Part shown: positions 6,448 through 39,875 of the stretch, piece by piece | How the letters are laid out: each line of letters opens with the position of its first letter | Position numbering within the stretch: position 1 is the stretch's first letter | DNA from: Dehalococcoidia bacterium | Lineage (GTDB): Bacteria; Chloroflexota; Dehalococcoidia; Lucifugimonadales; G963668185 | DNA length: 64,000 nucleotides | Direction: 5' to 3' | Assembly: GCA_963668185.1 (NCBI GenBank) | Contig: OY764162.1 | Span: forward strand, 678,915 to 742,914 | The notes under the pieces: model-generated | The model's input: the letters and a program-made list of their open reading frames with translations, nothing else | Told to the model about the DNA's origin: nothing | The model's database searches: none | Position numbers and translations under genes: made by a program

Positions 6448-7026
6448 ATGATTGAGCTTGAGGACGCGTTCGAACTCATCGAACGACATCGCGGCGACGC
6501 CGTAGTGATCGCGTGCCAGGAGAGCAGGCATGCGTGGGAGGCCGTCAGCGACACCCCGGACCTCGACATCCCCTTTGCCGGCTGCATGGGCAAGGGCTCC
6601 TCGCTCGGCCTCGGGATTGCCCTCGCCCAGCCCGACCGGAAGGTCATTGTCCTGGATGGCGACGGCAGCCTGCTGATGAATCTTGGCGGGCTTGCGACCG
6701 TCGCGGGCAAGTCGCCTTCCAACTTCTACCACTTCGTAATCGAAAACGGCATCTATGCCGGAACGGGCGGCCAGCCCATTCCCAACCGGGGCGGCGTCGG
6801 CTTTGCCAGCATGGCTGAAGCGGCCGGATACAATCAGGCGCACGACTTCGACGACCTTGAGGACCTGACGCTGCACTTGAACGATCTGATGTCTGCGAAA
6901 GGGCCGGTCTTCGCATCTCTCCGCGTCAGGCCGGTCCCTGAGACCAGGCCGATGAGCCGCAGGCCACGGGGCCGAAGACTGAGCGAAAGCCTCGAGTCCG
7001 TCAGAAAATCCCTCGCCGTCAACTAA
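6448..7026 (+). CDS. TPP-dependent decarboxylase beta subunit (ComE-like), copy 2
   Basis: GCMGKGSSLGLGIALA, LDGDGSLLMNLG...ENG, TGGQP; paralog of the preceding gene. Confidence 0.85.
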   Translation: MIELEDAFELIERHRGDAVVIACQESRHAWEAVSDTPDLDIPFAGCMGKGSSLGLGIALAQPDRKVIVLDGDGSLLMNLGGLATVAGKSPSNFYHFVIENGIYAGTGGQPIPNRGGVGFASMAEAAGYNQAHDFDDLEDLTLHLNDLMSAKGPVFASLRVRPVPETRPMSRRPRGRRLSESLESVRKSLAVN

Positions 7027-7128
7027 CCCGACAAGTGGCAAGGCTGCCGCGGCCCCTCGAGACGATGCGCCCTGCCCTTTCCCAATCCGCCCCTGAAGGT
7101 TAGGATGGGTTGAACGCTGGAGGCAAAC

Positions 7129-8619
7129 ATGACGCAGAGAAGCTATGCGGGCACTACGGACGCTCCCGAGTTCCCCGGGAATTTGGAGTGGCTCAACAGC
7201 GACGGCCCCCTCACGCTGCGGGAGCTGCGGGGGAAGATCGTACTTCTGGACTTCTGGACTTACTGCTGAATCAACTGCATCCACGCATTTCCGCAGTTGC
7301 GGAAACTGGAGCAGAAGTACAGCGATGAGCTCTTCGTCATTGGAGTGCACTCAGCCAAGTTCATGGCGGAGAAGGCCACTGAGAACGTCCGGCAGGCGAT
7401 CCTCAGATACGACCTTGAGCATCCCGTCGTAAACGACGCCGACTTCCAAGTCTGGCAGCAGTACGCCGCCCGCGCATGGCCGACCTTCATGTTCATAGAC
7501 CCCCAGGGCAGGATCATAGGCCGCCATGAGGGAGAGATTCCTTACGACGCCATGGACCGCGTCCTGGGCGAGATGGTCGCGCAGTTCGATTCGTCCGGCC
7601 TGATAGATCGCCGGACTATCCCCCACACGTTGGAGAAGGAAAAAGAGACCGACCGCCCCCTGTCATTCCCCGGAAAAGTGCATGCGGACGGCGCCTCCGG
7701 AAGGCTGTTCGTGGCCGACTCCAACCACAATCGCATTGTGGTTGCTACGCTGGACGGCTGCGTAACGGACGTGATCGGCTCGGGAGAGGCCGGGATGTCG
7801 GACGGCGGCTACACATCCGCCCGGTTCCACGATCCGCAGGGCATTGTCGTCGATGGCGACACGCTCTACGTGGCCGACACCAAGAACCACGCTATTCGCT
7901 CAGTGGATCTGGCGCAGCACAGGGTCTCGACAGCCGCCGGCACGGGCCAGCAAGCCAATCGCTTTCACTCCGGCGGCCCAGGACTGGAGACCAGCCTCGC
8001 CTCGCCCTGGGACGTGGAACTGCACGGCGCCAACCTGTACATCGCCATGGCGGGATTCCACCAGCTTTGGAGGATGGACAGGGCCACTTGCGAAATCCGG
8101 CCTCATGCCGGCAACGGCCGCGAGAACATAGACGATGGCCCATTGAAGTACGCTCAACTGGCCCAGCCGAGCGGTATCGTCACGGACGGCGCCCTGCTCT
8201 ACTTCACCGATAGCGAGACCAGTGCGATCCGGTCGGCCGACCTCGATCCCAGCGGTCGTGTGAAGACAATCGTCGGCGTCGACCTGTTCCAGTTCGGCGA
8301 CCTCGACGGAGTGGGTGACGCGGTGCGTCTCCAGCACCCCATCGGCATATGCACGTGGGAAGACCGCCTGCTGATTACCGACACCTACAACAACAAGGTC
8401 AAGAAGGTCTATCCGCACTCTCGCCGGGTTGAGTCGTTCATTGGCAGCGGTGAGGCCGGCAATGCCGACGGCGGGCGTTCCGAAGCCAGCTTCAATGAAC
8501 CCGCCGGACTGAGCGCGGCTAACGGCAACCTGTACATCGCGGACACCAACAACCACTCCATCCGGGTCGCGGACCTGCTCACAGGCCGCTTGACCACCCT
8601 GGAGTTGGCAGGCCTGTAA
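7129..8619 (+). CDS. Thioredoxin-like + NHL-repeat protein (NHLRC2/SOQ1-like); candidate selenoprotein, UGA at 7267-7269
   Basis: GGAGG then ATG 7129. Translation is [46 protein letters not shown]-(TGA)[17 protein letters not shown], in frame with ORF 7297-8619 ([12 protein letters not shown], repeated [27 protein letters not shown] blades). 496 aa with read-through. Confidence 0.88.
7288..7305 (+). promoter_or_regulatory. Putative bacterial SECIS hairpin
   Basis: TTTCCGC-AGTT-GCGGAAA: perfect 7-bp stem with a G in the apical loop; the loop starts 25 nt after the in-frame UGA. Confidence 0.65.
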
Positions 8620-8635
8620 CCGGGCCGTCCGCAAG

Positions 8636-10678
8636 ATGCCTAACCGCCTCGTACACGAGACCAGCCCTTACCTGCTTCAGCACGCCAACAACCCCGTGGA
8701 CTGGTACCCGTGGGGCGAAGAGGCGTTCGAAGAGGCGCGCTCCAGGGACAAGCCCGTCCTTCTCAGCGTCGGTTACTCCGCCTGCCACTGGTGTCACGTC
8801 ATGGAGCGCGAGTCCTTCGAGCACTTTGAGATCGCCCGGACCATGAACGACAACTTCGTCTGCGTGAAGGTTGACCGCGAAGAGCGGCCTGACGTGGACG
8901 CCATCTACATGACCGCCGTCCAGGCGATGACCGGCCAGGGCGGATGGCCGATGACCGTGTTCCTTACGCCGGACGGAAAGCCGTTCTATGGCGGCACGTA
9001 CTTTCCGCCTCGGGACCGCGGGCCTATGCCCGGCTTTCCCAGGGTGCTGGAGGCGATCAGCCGCTACTACAGCGAACACCGGGGGGAGGTCGATGCAACC
9101 TCCGCCAGGCTGATCGAACAGATCGAGCGGTACCAGTTTGCCGGCCGCGGCGTCGAGCCATTGACTCCGGACCTGCTTCAACGCGCCTACTCCGGGATTC
9201 GCGCGGAGTTCGACCACGTCAACGGAGGCACCGGCTCCCAGCCCAAGTTTCCCCAGCCTATGGTGTACGAGTTCCTGCTTAGGCATCACGTCCGCACGGG
9301 CTCGCCGGACGCCCTGGAGATGGTGGAGCTTACGCTTGACAAGATGGCCCGCGGGGGCATCTACGACCAGCTTGGCGGCGGGTTCCACAGGTACTCCACG
9401 GACGCAATCTGGCTCGTCCCGCACTTCGAGAAGATGCTGTACGACAACGCGCTCCTCGTAAAGCTGTACCTCCACACATACCAGGTCACGCGCAAGCCGC
9501 TCTACAGGAAGGTGATTGAACAGACCCTCGAATACGTAATGCGGGAGATGACCGGCGGCGAAGGCGGCTTCTACTCGGCCCAGGACGCCGACAGCGAGGG
9601 GGTCGAAGGAAAGTTCTTCGTTTGGCGGCCCGACGAAATCAAGTCGGTGCTCGGCGAGGACGATGGTGAACTCGTCAATCTCCACTTCGGCGTGACACAG
9701 CACGGTAACTTCGAGGGCCGCTCCATCCTCTTCGTTGACGGCGAGCGATCGGCAGCACTCGAGAAGTCCCAGCTTTCTGAGGAAGAGTTCGACGCCCTCC
9801 TCGAACGATGCCGCGGGCGGCTCCTGGAGCACAGGGAGCGGCGCATCAAGCCCGAACGAGACGATAAGGTCCTGACCGCATGGAACGGGCTGATGCTCCG
9901 GGCGTTTGCCGAAGCAGCTTCAATACTCGAAGAGTCTGAGTATGCTTCCGTGGCTAGGAAGAACGCCGACTTTCTTCTAACCCGTCTGCTTGAGGACGGG
10001 CGGCTGAAGCGTTCGTTCAAGGACGGCGACGCCAGGCTTAATGCGTACCTTGAGGACTACGCCTTCCTGATCGACGGCCTTCTTGCGCTGCACGAGGCGA
10101 CTTTCGAGTCAAGGTGGCTGGAAGCGGCGATAGAGCTTGGCCGGACGATGATCGACCTGTTCTGGGACGAAGACGAAGGCAGGATGTATGACACGAGCCG
10201 GGACCACGAAAAGCTGATCGTGCGGCCCAGGGACGTATCCGACAACGCAGTCCCCTCCGGGGGAAGCATGGCCGTGGACGTGCTCCTGCGTCTGGCCATC
10301 ATCACTGGCGACAGAGACATGGAGCGCGTGGGCGCAACCGCGCTCAGATCGGTTCGCGAACTCATGCTGATGGCGCCGCTCGGAGCGGGCCAGTGGCTAT
10401 GCGCCCTCGATATGTACCTGTCGGAGCCGCGCGAGATCGCAATCGTGGCGCGGCGCGGCGAGCCTGCCGCTGATGCCCTTGCCGCAGAGGTCTTCCGCCA
10501 TTACATCCCCAACCGTGTCATGGTTGGCGCGGCAGACCCGGCCGAGGCCGTTGAATCTCCCCTCCTGGAGTCGCGCGAAGCCGTGGACAGCGCACCCACC
10601 GCGTACGTCTGCCGCAACTACGTGTGCCAGTTGCCCGTCACAGAACCGCAGACGCTCGCCAACCTGCTAGCGAGTTGA
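8636..10678 (+). CDS. Thioredoxin domain-containing protein (YyaL/SSP411, DUF255 family)
   Basis: MPNRLVHETSPYLLQHANNPVDWYPWG, SACHWCHVMERESF, GGGFHRYSTD...PHFEKMLYDNA. Confidence 0.95.
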   Translation: MPNRLVHETSPYLLQHANNPVDWYPWGEEAFEEARSRDKPVLLSVGYSACHWCHVMERESFEHFEIARTMNDNFVCVKVDREERPDVDAIYMTAVQAMTGQGGWPMTVFLTPDGKPFYGGTYFPPRDRGPMPGFPRVLEAISRYYSEHRGEVDATSARLIEQIERYQFAGRGVEPLTPDLLQRAYSGIRAEFDHVNGGTGSQPKFPQPMVYEFLLRHHVRTGSPDALEMVELTLDKMARGGIYDQLGGGFHRYSTDAIWLVPHFEKMLYDNALLVKLYLHTYQVTRKPLYRKVIEQTLEYVMREMTGGEGGFYSAQDADSEGVEGKFFVWRPDEIKSVLGEDDGELVNLHFGVTQHGNFEGRSILFVDGERSAALEKSQLSEEEFDALLERCRGRLLEHRERRIKPERDDKVLTAWNGLMLRAFAEAASILEESEYASVARKNADFLLTRLLEDGRLKRSFKDGDARLNAYLEDYAFLIDGLLALHEATFESRWLEAAIELGRTMIDLFWDEDEGRMYDTSRDHEKLIVRPRDVSDNAVPSGGSMAVDVLLRLAIITGDRDMERVGATALRSVRELMLMAPLGAGQWLCALDMYLSEPREIAIVARRGEPAADALAAEVFRHYIPNRVMVGAADPAEAVESPLLESREAVDSAPTAYVCRNYVCQLPVTEPQTLANLLAS

Positions 10679-10760
10679 TCGGCGTCGTGGCCGGCGCTAG
10701 AGAGTCGTCTTCAGGCGGCGCAATCCCATGCACCGCCAACCGCAAGCGCGGCGCTCGCGA

Positions 10761-11153
10761 ATGAGCACGGGAGCGCTGGCGACTCTGCTGTTGGTCGGTC
10801 TTGGTGGATTCGCAGGATCGATACTGCGGTACGGCGCCGGCGAGTGGCTTCAGCGACTCTTGGGGGACTCGGCCTTCCCGTTCGGAACGCTGTTCGTCAA
10901 CGCGGCCGGCTGCCTCACGATTGGAATCCTTGCGGGACTCTCCGAGTCCCGCGACCTGCTCACCGAGGACGCGAGAAACTTCCTGTACGTGGGTGTCCTG
11001 GGCGGCTTCACCACGTTCTCGGCGTTCGGGTACCAGACGCTCACACTGATGCGAGACGGCCACACGGCAATGGCCCTCGCAAACGTCGGCCTGCAACTCG
11101 CGCTCGGCCTCAGCGCCGCCGCCGGGGGCTACTTGGCCGCCCGCGCGCTGTAG
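10761..11153 (+). CDS. crcB: Fluoride efflux channel CrcB/Fluc
   Basis: GGFAGSILRY, FPFGTLFVNAAGC, GVLGGFTTFSAF. Confidence 0.93.
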   Translation: MSTGALATLLLVGLGGFAGSILRYGAGEWLQRLLGDSAFPFGTLFVNAAGCLTIGILAGLSESRDLLTEDARNFLYVGVLGGFTTFSAFGYQTLTLMRDGHTAMALANVGLQLALGLSAAAGGYLAARAL

Positions 11154-30568: not shown

Positions 30569-32167
30569 CTAGCCCGCACTCTGCCCTGTGGCAGCCTCTA
30601 CCGGATACCGCGCCGCCCAGCCGTCGAAACCGCCGGATAGCGCCGCCGCGCTGTGTCCCATCGCCTGTAGCTGCTGCGCCGCACGGACGCCCGTCGCGTC
30701 GCCCGGTCAGGCGCAGTAGGTAACGATCAGCGCCTCTCCGCGCGGCCTGCCCGCCGCCCACTCGGAGACCTCGTCGGGCAGTACTCTCACGGATCCCGGT
30801 ACCTGCAACCCGGACGCCGCGTAAGCAGACCGTGAGCGCACGTCCAGGATCACCGACGGCGTGACGCCGCCCGCCATCTCGCGCAGCTCCTCCGGCGTTA
30901 CGGTCCGCACTTCGCTGTCGTCCCGCGCGAACAGCCCGTCCGCCGTTCCTTCCCGCTCCTCAGCTAGCGTTGCTCGGTCAGCCTTTCGTCCGTACCATGC
31001 GCCCAGCGGCGTCGTGCTCGCCCCGTGGATAGCCACCGACGCAATAACGACCACACCTACCGTCGCCAGCAACTCCTCGGCCCCCGGTACGTGCGCCTGC
31101 ACGGCAAGCAGCGCCAGCAGCAGCGAGTTCAGGCCGCGAGGCCCGAACCACGCGATCAGCCCCTTCGCCTCAAGGCTCAGCCTGGTCCGCGCCAGCAGAG
31201 CTCCCAGCACCGGCGGACGAAGTCCGAAGATCACGATGGCGGCCAGCGCCGCCGCCAGCGGGATGTTGACCGTTTCGAGAATGCCGGACAGCACCGCGCC
31301 GAACAGCACGAACGCCAGCAGCATCGCCATCTCGGACGTCACCTCGCCGTACTCCATGAAGCAGTCGCAAAGCCGCTGGTTCAGCAGCACCACGGCCAGC
31401 CCTGCGGCGAAGGCGGCCAGGAATCCGTCGCCACCCGCCGCCGTGGCCGCGCCGAAGGCCGCCAGCACGAGGCCGATGCCGTAGAACGACTGATGCTCAC
31501 GGCGGATGTTCATTCGAGCGTCCACCCGGTTCATCAGCCACGATCCGACGCCCCCGATGGCAAACCCTATCGCCGGGCCCAGCAGCAGAAGTTGAGCAAG
31601 GAATCCGCCCCACGCTGCCATGTCCCTGCCCTGCGCCTGGGCGACCGCAATCAGCACCAGGATCACGGGAAGCACGATGATGTCGTTCGTTCCCGCCTCT
31701 ATCTTGAGCACCTGCCGCACCGAGCGCGGGACTCTTTTGTCGCGCACAAGCTCTCGGAGCACCACCGGGTCGGTCGAGGCGAGTATCGCCCCGCCTATGA
31801 ACGCGACCAGCCAACCGAATCCCAGCATGAGCGCCAACGGCAGCGCGCCAAGCGAAATGATGAGCGCCGTGCCCGGCCCCAGGATCAGCGCGGGTATCAG
31901 CCACCGCCGGCCCAACTCCTCGACCTGCAGGTTCAGCGCGTCCAGGAAGAGGACAAGCGAGAGCGTCAGGGCCGCGACCACTTCGAGGATAGGATCGTGC
32001 GGCCCCATCTCCAGCAATCCGAACCCACTCTCGCCCAGCAGCAATCCCAGGCCCAGGAACAGTATCGGGAATGACAGTGGAGACCGCTCCACCGCGCCCG
32101 ACACCAGCGCGGTGACCACCATGATGACCGCGATCAGGCCGAACGCCGGAAGAAACTCAGGTAACAT
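30569..32167 (-). CDS. Cation:proton antiporter (CPA1/NhaP-like) fused to a C-terminal rhodanese domain; candidate selenoprotein, UGA at 30709-30707
   Basis: GAILASTDPV, LKIEAGTND, WFGPRGLNS, then ILDVRS...VPGSVRV...IVTYCA-(TGA)-PGDATGVRAAQQLQAMGHSAAALSGGFDGWAARYPVE...TAG 30569. The rhodanese fold is complete only after read-through. Confidence 0.85.
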
Positions 32168-32223
32168 GGGCTGTGGCCTTACTGCGACCCAACTAAGTTC
32201 ATGCAGGTAAGGCTACAAGGGCG

Positions 32224-32964
32224 CTAGCCCTGGCTGTCTAACCTGTCTCCGCGCAGGCGGCCCAACTCCGCCTGAAGCTCACGGATCTGAGCCTCAGCGG
32301 CTATGCGCATCGCGCGCTCTTCGCCGAGGACGTTCAGCCACTCCCCGGTGGCGCTGTCGCGCAGGCGGAACCTTCCGAACCCATCCTCCAAAAGGTGGTA
32401 CACGTCCACCCCCAGGACCTCGCTCCGTGACCACGTGCTGCCGTCCGTCTCCTCGCGCAATTCCAGCCGCTCATACTCTCCATCCACCAGCCGCTCACCC
32501 ACCAGCGGTTCGCCGTAATGCTCTCCGTTTCGGTCAAGGCGCCAGTACTCCGTAACCCCGATGCGCGCGTATATCTCTCGCTTATCACCCAGATCTCTTG
32601 CCGCCGTACTCGCCGACGCCACCTCCATCACAAAGGCAGGCGGCTTGCCCCATTCGTCTATCCTGTAGCTCCGCCGCTCTCGCCTGATGAACTCGGTGTC
32701 CACTCCGAACACGACGTAGCAGTCCGGCGATATCACCGAGCCGGGCGTGTCCGAGTCGTACACGATTACCGCTGTGGGACCGGACACGAGCACCGTGGGA
32801 TCGTCCGCGTAGCGTGCCCGGATGATCGGGTTGACGTGGTCTATCGTGTCTTCCTGCTGCATCCCGTCCTCTATCGGTTCGGCCACGTCGCTTATCAACT
32901 CGTACCAGGGACGGTCAGCGACGTCGGACGGCAGGGGCATCTTCGCGCCTGCTGGTGTCGTCAT
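32224..32964 (-). CDS. Uma2 family (PD-(D/E)XK-like) endonuclease
   Basis: ISPDCYVVFGV, PAFVMEVASAST, DLGDKREIYARIGVTEYW. Confidence 0.88.
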   Translation of the reverse strand: MTTPAGAKMPLPSDVADRPWYELISDVAEPIEDGMQQEDTIDHVNPIIRARYADDPTVLVSGPTAVIVYDSDTPGSVISPDCYVVFGVDTEFIRRERRSYRIDEWGKPPAFVMEVASASTAARDLGDKREIYARIGVTEYWRLDRNGEHYGEPLVGERLVDGEYERLELREETDGSTWSRSEVLGVDVYHLLEDGFGRFRLRDSATGEWLNVLGEERAMRIAAEAQIRELQAELGRLRGDRLDSQG

Positions 32965-37652: not shown

Positions 37653-38144
37653 TCAGCGTGGCGGGAAGGCATCTTGCTCAATCTGTGCTGCCCTGTCGAG
37701 AAGTCCTTGCTCCTTGACTTTTACACGATATTCCTTACGGAGACGGGATTTGAACTCCTCAACCCATTCCTGAGAGGTCTGGGATTCCTCATATCGAATA
37801 TCCTTCCGAAGATTGGCATTCACATCATCGGCGACCGTGATTATGAACTGGTTAACATCTTGAGTGAGGATGTTGGAGGCAGGGGTGTTGAGGTTACTCA
37901 GACGCTTCATATCAAAAAGGCCCGCTTCATTGAAAGCCTTATATCCGAGATCCGAGGCGACATTCCCAGTCTCCTTGCGGTAATTAACCAATTCATCATA
38001 TTCATCGACAATCCACTGTCTATTGCGAGCTTGCGCTGAGCGTGCGGCAGAACGACCTACCGCCAGTCCGCCCACTGCAATGACAACGAGCACGAAAATA
38101 TTCAGTATCTCGCCAATTGTGATGCTCCAAGACCACCAATCCAT
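37653..38144 (-). CDS. Hypothetical protein, N-terminal TM, AT-rich
   Basis: 163-aa ORF with AGGAG RBS in a visibly lower-GC segment. Confidence 0.6.
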   Translation of the reverse strand: MDWWSWSITIGEILNIFVLVVIAVGGLAVGRSAARSAQARNRQWIVDEYDELVNYRKETGNVASDLGYKAFNEAGLFDMKRLSNLNTPASNILTQDVNQFIITVADDVNANLRKDIRYEESQTSQEWVEEFKSRLRKEYRVKVKEQGLLDRAAQIEQDAFPPR

Positions 38145-38198
38145 TGTCGACTCCTAGCCTAGTCCGGCCTCTCGGAACGGGATGGTCACGCCCGCTTC

Positions 38199-39875
38199 CT
38201 ACCTCCTGCGCCGCCTTCTGCGCGTTGTGCGTTGCGCCCGGCCGTGCCGCAGGTAGGGTTCGCGCTCCGGGGGCAGGTGGCCGTTGGTACGGTTGCGCGC
38301 CTGCAAGCCCGTCAAGGTAAGGTGGTCCTTCTTTTCCTTGTTGCAGGGCGGGCATAGCAGCGTTAGGTTGTCGTAGGCGTCGCTGCCGCCTTCCGACGTG
38401 GGGCGGATATGGTCAACCTCCAACACGCGAGGGTCGAAGCCGTAGTCGCGCCCGCAACCCTGGCAGAACGCGCCGATGTCGGCCAGCAGGCGCGGATGCT
38501 GCGTCCTGGGCTTGGGATGCCGGGGGCGTTTGCCCGTCGGCGTTCGGAAGGCGACCGTTGCGGGATCGCCGTCGTCCGTGCGCTGGGGAGGGACGGTCTT
38601 CAGGTGAATGTCCGCGAACGTCAGGGTTTGCTGCCCGCGCTTCTTCTTGGACTGCGGAACAACCAGGTTCTCCTGCTCCATACGGTCGAGCACCATCTGG
38701 TACGCGCCGTCCCATATATCGATGCCGACCCACTGCCGGCCCAACCGTTCGGCGGCCACGGGCGTTGTGGCGCAGCCAACGAACGGATCAAGCACCATGT
38801 CGCCGGGATTCGAGGACGCCTTGATGATGCGCTCGTACAACGCCAACGGCTTCTGAGTCGGGTAGCCTGTGGCTTCGCCCTTCTTGCTGTAATTGGTGAA
38901 CCCGCGTGGTTCAAGAATCAGGTCTTGGGGAAGCTTGCCCGTGTCGGCGGCGGCGTATCTCTTGAGGCCGGGCCACTTTCCCCTATCGGGATGATGGATG
39001 AGCCCTGCCTTGTCCAGCGCGTCAAGCCGTTCGTGAACGCCGGCGATGCCGCGGTAGCCGGGGATGAACTCCCGCTCTATGTACTCCGCGTACGTGCCCG
39101 TCTTCGGAACCGACCAAACGCGGTTCATCGCATATACGTCGTAATCCTTCCACGGCAACGTGCTGGGGCTGCCCCTTTCGGCATTGTGGCGGGGGCCTGT
39201 CAGGTTGTCGGCGCGGTAACGTCCCCGTTCGTCTTGCGAGGGATACGCGATGCGCAACTCTTCCGGTGTCCTAGGGGTCGCGATAGCACTGCCATTCCAA
39301 GTAGTGTCCCCTCCCTTCACGTAGTAGAGAATCGTGTCGTGGATGGCACCGAACCGCTTGGCGTCATTGTGGCTTACGGACCGCCTCCAGACGATCTCAT
39401 TACGGAACTGGTCCGGCCCAAAGACGGCATCGAGCATGCACTTCACCCAAGCATGGGCGGTGTGATCGATATGCAGGTAGAAGCTCCCGCCATCCGCAAG
39501 CACCCGGTGCATCTCCAGCACCCGGACGCCAAGCCAGCACAGGAACGCGCCCATGCCGTTGCTGTGGGCTTCCTTCGCCGACATGATGACGTTCCAGATC
39601 TCCGGCTCGTCCGTGGAGATGCTGTCAAGCCAATCGGGGTGAAGGTCTTCGCGCCACCGCCACCTATCCTCGAAGCCCACGCCCGCGCTCATCTTGTCGG
39701 GCGTCACGTGGAAGTCCTTGTTCTTGTTGAACGGCGGGTCGGTAGCTATCAACTGCACCGAACGGCTATTCATCCCCTGTAGCACGGGCAGGTTGTCGCC
39801 GTGGTACAGGGTACGGTTCTCGAAGTTCATCCTGCTGGCGGGAACGGGATTCTGCATGCTCGCGGTGTCCGGCAT
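38199..39875 (-). CDS. N6/N4 DNA methyltransferase (beta order) fused to a C-terminal HNH endonuclease
   Basis: [29 protein letters not shown]; C-terminal CQGC...VDHIRP...[10 protein letters not shown]. Confidence 0.9.

Follow-up and report, generated by a model that had tools for sequence, protein, structure and literature searches.

An in-frame UGA in a thioredoxin-like/NHL-repeat gene of a Dehalococcoidia bacterium very probably encodes selenocysteine at the CxxC site of the NHLRC2/SOQ1 family

At positions 7129 to 8619 of a 64,000-nucleotide stretch of a Dehalococcoidia genome (the window, which here means the whole stretch analysed) lies a reading frame that is interrupted by one TGA, raising the question of whether this codon ends a short peptide or is read as selenocysteine (Sec). 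The frame encodes a thioredoxin-like (Trx-like) domain and, after it, an NHL-repeat beta-propeller, the core shared by the plant protein SOQ1 and the human protein NHLRC2. The evidence consists of the gene structure, the conservation of the TGA, the covariation of a hairpin downstream of it, the Sec machinery of the genome and homology with an exact match at the site, all of which are observed. From these sequence comparisons, we hold it to be very probable that the frame is a single gene for a 496-residue selenoprotein of the SOQ1/NHLRC2 family.

The sole internal stop of the frame is the TGA at 7267 to 7269 (codon 47), and most orthologues likewise start 46 codons before the Sec codon. A preliminary description of this DNA had reported a strong ribosome-binding sequence, an ATG at 7129, a thioredoxin frame, and an in-frame TGA joining that frame to a downstream NHL open reading frame (ORF), and all of these are present, the ribosome-binding sequence being GGAGG. 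Pfam recognizes Thioredoxin_8/AhpC-TSA/Redoxin over residues 11 to 146 of the encoded product (the window protein) and NHL repeats thereafter. Neither a signal peptide nor a C-terminal domain (CTD) is present in the window protein, which ends directly after the propeller.

The TGA could have been peculiar to this assembly, which the preliminary description had named as grounds for rejecting a selenoprotein, but it occupies the same column in many other genomes. Among the 150 fetched loci that carry the site, some of which are the same genome reached by two routes, 79 have TGA (69 in Chloroflexota and 10 in Planctomycetota) and 71 have cysteine (Cys) in the motif CCINC. Within the same order (61 genomes), there are 23 full or near-full orthologue rows, of which 20 have one TGA, 2 have none, and 1 is a fragment missing the site; six-frame reading of the same-order loci places the TGA in an identical column in 18, and the two exceptions have CCINC. 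Unbiased six-frame surveys, with TGA rows counted by hand, returned one TGA in 49 of 90 orthologue rows for the class (401 genomes), in 63 of 80 rows for the phylum (401 genomes, counts that take in the unpublished genomes G655, G486 and G582), in 0 of 24 rows for Acidobacteriota (251 genomes), and in 11 of 58 rows for Planctomycetota (251 genomes). The TGA column was confirmed in 20 of 20 class loci, 20 of 20 loci from other Chloroflexota classes, and 10 of 11 planctomycete loci, the eleventh (L179) being a locus that does not match the site pattern. The public species-representative genomes were scanned with a single pattern containing Cys codons, which biases the result to Cys forms; the best 80 loci comprise 10 Sec forms (all titled Dehalococcoidia), 69 Cys forms, and 1 truncated locus. 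The 69 Cys loci divide into 68 from other phyla (Acidobacteriota, Armatimonadota, Planctomycetota, Ignavibacteriota, Latescibacterota and others) and one Chloroflexota Thermobaculum metagenome-assembled genome (MAG). Sec-form orthologues reach down to approximately 43% protein identity, with frames that are otherwise intact.

This distribution bears on two further possibilities, a pseudogene and a TGA introduced by faulty sequencing or assembly. Nothing beyond the stop codon itself favors either, and both are already refuted by the occurrence of the same TGA in 79 loci of different genomes with intact frames, their probability being negligible. The assembled reads also carry the TGA, a check that had been proposed at the outset: Logan contigs from two runs (X1 and X2) show 0 differences from the window over 7000 to 7316, TGA included. 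These contigs are of DNA type and come from one study, perhaps from the same sample as the assembly, and are accordingly not independent of it. The runs listed included no RNA.

The codon falls on the attacking position of the family's active site. Residues 10 to 495 of the window protein align with SOQ1 (PDB 7djj, chain residues 6 to 513 of 667; E = 1.2e-127) and residues 11 to 491 with NHLRC2 (6gc1; E = 1.7e-109), and the NHL-only constructs align over residues 176 to 495 (7djm; E = 9e-74) and 176 to 491 (6g7w; E = 1.6e-61). The window protein has C-U-I-N-C where the family has CC(I/V)NC, and in both the SOQ1 and the NHLRC2 alignments U47 occupies the column of CCINC's second Cys, the residue that opens CxxC. 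The preliminary description had assigned the UGA to this Cys, and the crystal sequences and the 71 bacterial Cys-form loci align in agreement with it. By this alignment, Sec47 would correspond to SOQ1 C431 and NHLRC2 C90, the N-terminal attacking Cys of CxxC. Because either C431S or C434S abolishes SOQ1 function (10.1101/2021.03.16.435614), U47 appears to replace an essential attacking Cys. In the solved homologues, this Cys begins a helix and lies in the cleft toward the propeller. The W-P-T cis-proline loop, whose role is described in PMC6107167, is conserved as well ("awptf" in the window protein versus "cwptl"/"swptf" in the NHLRC2/SOQ1 alignment). No NCBIfam model reaches its cut-off for the window protein.

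Shortly after the UGA comes a hairpin with the properties of a bacterial selenocysteine insertion sequence (SECIS). It is composed of TTTCCGC (7288 to 7294), AGTT (7295 to 7298) and GCGGAAA (7299 to 7305), forming a perfect stem that starts 18 nucleotides (nt) past the UGA, spans +22 to +39 (numbering from the U of UGA), and sits inside the codons for F-P-Q-L-R-K. The distance from the TGA to the loop is exactly 25 nt. The 54 nt from the UGA fold at -19 kcal/mol (z = -3.68), a stability equalled by 0 of 200 dinucleotide shuffles. The perfect hairpin and its 25-nt spacing had been noted from the letters of this one sequence; both are borne out, and the shuffles and the conservation across genomes place the hairpin beyond chance. 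The bacterial SECIS consensus of Zhang and Gladyshev from 2005 reportedly puts the loop 16 to 37 nt past the UGA, with a G within the first two loop bases, and we take the spacing and the loop G of the window hairpin to match it. The Escherichia coli fdhF-type SECIS likewise has a stem-loop shortly 3' of the UGA, its apical loop containing G-U; the window hairpin differs in its perfect 7-base-pair stem and 4-nt loop, and its binding by SelB is predicted.

The hairpin is conserved as an RNA structure. Across 45 distinct Dehalococcoidia sequences, the core CCGCAGUUGCGG (+25 to +36) is invariant from +25 to +35 and differs in 1 sequence at +36. For the Pro and Gln codons this invariance extends to the third position, and for the Leu and Arg codons to both the first and the third; third positions elsewhere vary. 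In an alignment (A2) of 42 sequences, chosen for diversity from 68 Chloroflexota Sec loci, 96.3% of cells are paired, 4 of the 7 pairs show compensatory double changes (e.g., U-A to C-G or G-C), and the covariation score is reached by 0 of 500 column shuffles; control structures slid by 1 to 3 columns are 30 to 70% paired. RNAalifold independently predicts the same 7 pairs. All 7 pairs occur at fixed positions in 63 of the 69 Chloroflexota Sec loci, whereas no more than 5 of the 7 pairs are present at the same positions in any of the 71 Cys loci (mean, 2.8), none of which forms the hairpin. The survey of Chloroflexota that the preliminary description had recommended has therefore found both the TGA and the hairpin conserved, with covariation.

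The peptide encoded at the hairpin is (F/L)PQLRKLE in Sec forms, as opposed to the IPDLKKLE type in Cys forms. Because the covarying columns lie in different codons and at different codon positions, a constraint on the peptide cannot explain the covariation, and this cross-codon covariation and the synonymous-site invariance argue against peptide conservation as the whole cause. In planctomycete Sec forms, hairpins occur in other registers, several with a GC-rich stem capped by AGUU or AGUUG, and in some relatives (L039, L176 and L177) the 3' arm of the hairpin contains a bulged U. With its Sec at the CxxC site and its canonical bacterial SECIS, the gene joins a known kind, the thioredoxin-fold UxxC selenoproteins.

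The read data show a local feature at the same place. The summed depth of the Logan contigs of X1 and X2 rises from approximately 19 to 27 to 175 to 300 exactly at the hairpin (window 7285 to 7341), and contigs break at 7291 to 7320, with loose ends that resemble other orthologues. The SECIS stretch appears to be common, letter for letter, to several members of the community.

The genome is equipped to decode UGA as Sec. The source assembly is a single contig of 2.78 Mb, 96.6% complete, and contains selA (536 bits), selB (336 bits) and selD (380 bits), all above curated cut-offs, along with a tRNA-Sec gene (selC; Rfam, 63.9 bits) that ARAGORN calls SeC with anticodon tca, so that the sel genes whose presence was to be checked are all there. 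Moreover, selD (G000:C1:1184915-1185835, locus L014) is itself a selenoprotein gene, with one in-frame TGA at locus position 1531 in the context ...CAG-U-ASK... and, approximately 29 nt later, a GC-rich hairpin UGGCGCAG-GUC-CUGCGCCA with G-U in the loop. Elsewhere TGA acts as a normal stop, closing 28 of the 71 open frames of at least 250 codons in the window. An alternative genetic code, with TGA as Trp or Gly, is ruled out by this usage and by the full Sec system.

A complete Sec system leaves the question of which residue is inserted. The UGA might be read through without Sec, either by a near-cognate tRNA delivering Trp or Cys or by Cys entering via the Sec machinery at low selenium, with the hairpin stimulating read-through or regulating translation. 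We infer the identity of the inserted residue, and Cys insertion at Sec UGA codons under selenium limitation has been reported in other systems, both of which leave some room for such an event. However, the hairpin lies at what we take to be the distance of a SelB-dependent SECIS and has G-U in its loop, and Sec use is supported in the source genome, the one genome in which the sel genes were checked. A Trp in place of the nucleophile would ruin the site, and Cys entering in part of the product would be a by-product of the Sec mechanism itself. Read-through of this sort is thus very unlikely, and Sec is the residue favored at codon 47.

The annotation of this and related genes could be taken to indicate that the TGA is a true stop, which would yield a 46-residue peptide and a separate truncated protein of 440 to 446 amino acids (aa) initiated at a downstream TTG or ATG, the hairpin being incidental or serving translational coupling. 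The table-11 ORF list gives only 7297 to 8619 (440 aa, TTG start), and approximately 54 of the best 120 relatives in the public protein collection (hand count) are 440 to 453 aa long. Three of these short entries were read: two start with MH(V/I)FPQLRK just past U-I-N-C, and one starts with MRKLEQ, six residues on, at the TTG in the hairpin. But the 46 codons before the TGA keep their frame across relatives, encode the opening strands of the Trx-like fold and align with SOQ1 and NHLRC2 from residue 10, and a truncated product would miss the CxxC motif and half of the fold. A true stop would also have to coincide exactly with the column of the catalytic Cys in each of 79 loci, and the genome has a complete Sec system. 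The short database entries are the expected artefact of gene callers unable to read Sec, and we consider a genuine stop at this codon highly improbable.

If the selenoprotein reading is correct, many database genes from Chloroflexota and Planctomycetota are truncated at the UGA and have lost their active site, and the near-invariant core CCGCAGUUGCGG would provide a simple marker for re-annotating them. The names of the database sources include "alkyl hydroperoxide reductase" and "sugar lactone lactonase YvrE", and none is labelled a selenoprotein. Judged by titles and abstracts, a literature search returned no relevant link of selenocysteine or selenoproteins with NHLRC2, SOQ1 or NHL repeats. 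The term "NHL" is absent from the main texts of BSepDB, which describes 111 families (PMC13326102), and of deep-Sep (PMC12013277); this search covered the main texts, and the family may already be catalogued in the supplementary family lists under a generic thioredoxin-like name.

Several points weigh against the selenoprotein reading and the chemistry drawn from it. Insertion of Sec is itself something that we infer, and the surveyed genomes are interrelated, such that the locus counts overstate the number of independent events. The nucleotide conservation of the hairpin partly overlaps the conserved peptide FPQLRK, and that peptide alone is not diagnostic, as a full-length Cys form (protein P0007, 497 aa, with CCINC) keeps FPQLRKLE, perhaps after a recent change from Sec to Cys. 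In an Rfam scan of 7000 to 8700 at E <= 1, no model matches the hairpin, and two weak, unrelated matches (SAM-IV, 22.7 bits, and snoU82P, 20.3 bits) were returned; a generic bacterial SECIS model appears to be absent from Rfam, making this negative uninformative. As to chemistry, NHLRC2 was reported to be inactive in an insulin reduction assay (PMC6107167), and a 2024 preprint on SOQ1 puts the catalytic Cys pair for methionine sulfoxide reductase (Msr) activity in the CTD, a domain that is absent here.

The absence of the CTD is general among Sec forms. Those read to their stop (48 from Chloroflexota and 10 from planctomycetes) extend 438 to 474 residues after Sec and have no CTD, the exception in length being L028, which ends 272 residues after Sec at a TAA. 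Among the 71 Cys forms, 49 run 524 to 612 residues past the Cys, 16 are short (442 to 472 residues), and 6 run off the contig. The two long Cys forms that were translated (Brocadia P0122 and Blastocatellia P0123) have a signal-peptide-like N-terminus and a C-terminal Cys pair, and the Brocadia protein aligns with SOQ1 chain residues 8 to 640, CTD included. Some planctomycete Sec forms, judged by eye, seem to carry a signal peptide or membrane anchor.

The window protein does not have the C-terminal beta-stranded (nDsbD-like) domain with a Cys pair that SOQ1 has. This CTD is described as indispensable in SOQ1 and as non-conserved in NHLRC2, and the 2024 SOQ1 preprint reports that electrons pass from the Trx-like domain to the CTD and that a Trx-NHL-CTD construct has Msr activity. 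The preliminary description had regarded the redox activity of the family as unresolved, which holds for NHLRC2 but no longer in full for SOQ1, for which the preprint describes Cys pairs that are redox-active together with the Msr activity. Its argument that Sec would mark the motif as catalytic is supported by the present results but needs qualification, since the Sec forms are without the domain to which the preprint assigns the Msr chemistry.

Sec and Cys forms also differ in the residue that precedes the attacking position. Ala or Gly replaces the first Cys of CCINC in 18 of the 79 Sec loci (A-U-I-N-C or G-U-I-N-C in L129 to L138, L147, L156 to L158, L169, L170, L173 and L041) versus 0 of the 71 Cys loci. 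Natural Sec/Cys pairs are, as Fomenko et al. reportedly set out in 2007, an established indicator of catalytic redox cysteines. Given that such pairs mark catalytic Cys and that the Sec form is widespread, the second Cys of CCINC can be argued to be the catalytic nucleophile.

We tentatively advance a broader interpretation, for which our confidence falls somewhat short of even. The Sec forms would constitute a CTD-less subfamily of NHLRC2/SOQ1 proteins, common in Chloroflexota and present in some Planctomycetota, that has gone unrecognized, with all members mis-annotated as truncated. The cleft that separates the Trx-like domain from the NHL propeller would then be a catalytic reductase site (e.g., for protein methionine sulfoxide, sulfenate or disulfide) and not a mere relay to a CTD, and the first Cys of CCINC would be a helper that Sec makes unnecessary. 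Under this interpretation, the loss of the first Cys in Sec loci only implies that the helper role is dispensable with Sec.

A plausible sequence of decoding and catalysis can be proposed. SelB carrying Sec-tRNA(Sec) would bind the 7-base-pair AGUU hairpin and deliver Sec to the ribosome at codon 47. In the folded protein, which is probably cytoplasmic, the propeller would dock a protein substrate, and Sec47 would attack an oxidised sulfur of the docked protein, be it a disulfide, a sulfenate or a methionine sulfoxide. A selenenylsulfide would form between Sec47 and Cys50 and could be resolved by a cytoplasmic thiol reductant, for which the CxxC protein encoded by the adjacent DUF255 gene is a candidate. 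As the Sec forms have no C-terminal DsbD-like domain, the Trx-like site must work on its target itself, with no CTD to which electrons could be relayed, and the Trx-like/NHL core would be catalytic without that domain.

Such an enzyme would be relevant beyond bacteria. NHLRC2 is an essential human protein whose variants lead to FINCA, a fatal disease of childhood, and what it does biochemically is described as undetermined (PMC6107167 and the 2024 SOQ1 preprint). In plants, SOQ1 governs a quenching pathway that is photoprotective. For enzymology of the family and for substrate trapping, the window protein offers a bacterial representative that is small and soluble.

In a quick phylogeny, the Sec label is strongly clustered. 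An unrooted FastTree phylogeny of 128 rows, with the Sec site entered as X, rows with fewer than 400 residues past the site dropped, and many forks left open, requires 5 changes of the Sec/Cys label (3 of which are forced by starred branches), compared with a mean of approximately 42 when labels are shuffled. Cys forms L033, L040 and L110 are nested among Sec forms, and the planctomycete Sec forms stand apart from the planctomycete Cys forms.

The surveys also show variation in copy number and form. The Chloroflexota genome G648 has two Sec-form copies on contig C157, at 31142 to 32611 (- strand) and 37858 to 39327 (+ strand), with identical scores, approximately 5 kb apart and in opposite orientation. 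The Dehalococcoidia families f72 and f114 (e.g., G192, G303 and G175) have Cys-form orthologues in open frames of approximately 700 to 900 codons, and these could be long forms, extended by a CTD or at the N-terminus, that exist in the class beside the short Sec forms.

The closest characterized relatives differ from the window protein in defined ways. SOQ1 of the Arabidopsis thylakoid lumen (PDB 7djj, 7djk, 7djl and 7djm) shares the motif context DFWTYC-C/U-INC; in comparison, the window protein has Sec for Cys, no HAD domain, no transmembrane helix, and no CTD, ending where chain residue 513 of 667 aligns. As opposed to lumenal SOQ1, it lacks a signal peptide and is therefore probably cytoplasmic. 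Human NHLRC2 (PDB 6gc1 and 6g7w), the FINCA disease protein, shares the core of a Trx-like domain and a six-bladed NHL propeller and has CCINC in the interdomain cleft together with the conserved cis-proline loop, as in the window protein, which differs in having Sec in place of Cys90. NHLRC2 is cytosolic and has no signal peptide, and the window protein is likewise without one.

Among bacterial proteins, the long Cys forms P0122 and P0123 are 50 to 60% identical over the Trx-NHL core and have the same CCINC context, but they differ in having a signal-peptide- or lipoprotein-like N-terminus, a CTD of approximately 140 residues with a Cys pair, Cys in place of Sec, no hairpin, and no DUF255 neighbor. 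The UxxC selenoprotein families NF041054 ("ResA-like WAxxUGC motif-containing protein") and NF041199 ("Trx7/PDZ domain-containing (seleno)protein") share with the window protein a TlpA/ResA-like Trx fold with Sec at the N-terminal position of CxxC; in families of this type, as for the window protein, Cys homologues exist and a SECIS hairpin lies just downstream. Such families score far below their cut-offs on the window protein (NF041054, 22 bits against a cut-off of 300), and none of them has an NHL propeller.

Table 1. Coordinates of the Sec gene, its elements and its neighbors in the window
Feature	Position	Strand	Description and basis
TPP_enzyme_C-domain gene	6448-7026	+	Upstream of the Sec gene
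Shine-Dalgarno sequence GGAGG	7118-7122	+	Read directly; 6 nt 5' of ATG 7129
Full coding sequence	7129-8619	+	496 sense codons plus TAA 8617-8619; Sec is residue 47 (translation with TGA = U)
Thioredoxin-like (TlpA/Thioredoxin_8-type) domain	7159-7566	+	Residues ~11-146, including the conserved W-P-T cis-proline loop; Pfam ranges
Active-site motif C46-U47-I48-N49-C50	7264-7278	+	Equivalent to CCINC of SOQ1 (C430-C434) and NHLRC2 (residues 89-93)
UGA codon 47, predicted to be read as Sec	7267-7269	+	Conserved TGA column; Sec machinery in genome
Bacterial SECIS hairpin	7288-7305	+	7-bp (base-pair) stem (7288-7294 with 7299-7305), AGUU loop 7295-7298
NHL-repeat beta-propeller	7654-8613	+	Residues ~176-495; Pfam NHL, E = 1.4e-27
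DUF255/Thioredox_DsbH (YyaL-like) gene	8636-10678	+	CHWC motif; Pfam PF03190, E = 7.5e-78; 16 nt past the stop
CrcB gene	10728-11153		Downstream of the DUF255 gene

The neighborhood of the Sec gene is conserved over a narrow range (Table 1). The preliminary description had placed a YyaL-like CxxC gene and crcB downstream and proposed a redox operon; both genes are present as described, but an operon is supported at most for the Sec gene and the DUF255 gene, a pair conserved only within the window's order, and not for crcB. In 17 of 23 same-order loci, as in 9 of 11 species-representative loci titled Dehalococcoidia, the DUF255 gene is the next gene downstream, and it lies beside none of the 69 Cys-form loci outside Dehalococcoidia (68 from other phyla and the Thermobaculum MAG). 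The pairing appears to be new, though lineage-specific and narrow; the two genes are probably co-transcribed, and the DUF255 protein is a possible functional partner. Biterova et al. reported no conserved neighbors of the family in the 7 bacterial genomes that they considered (PMC6107167).

A match to CrcB was found in 0 of the 103 related loci searched, only 5 of which (L049, L051, L052, L053 and L074) extend at least 0.9 kb beyond the DUF255 gene, and crcB was dropped as an operon member because it is not conserved beside the gene. On the other side, the TPP-enzyme gene adjoins the Sec gene only within the genus (L019 to L022). Outside the window, the source genome also encodes a second relative that has the Trx domain only (G000:C1:1041096-1041536), 39% identical over residues 10 to 155, in a 488-codon frame with no TGA.

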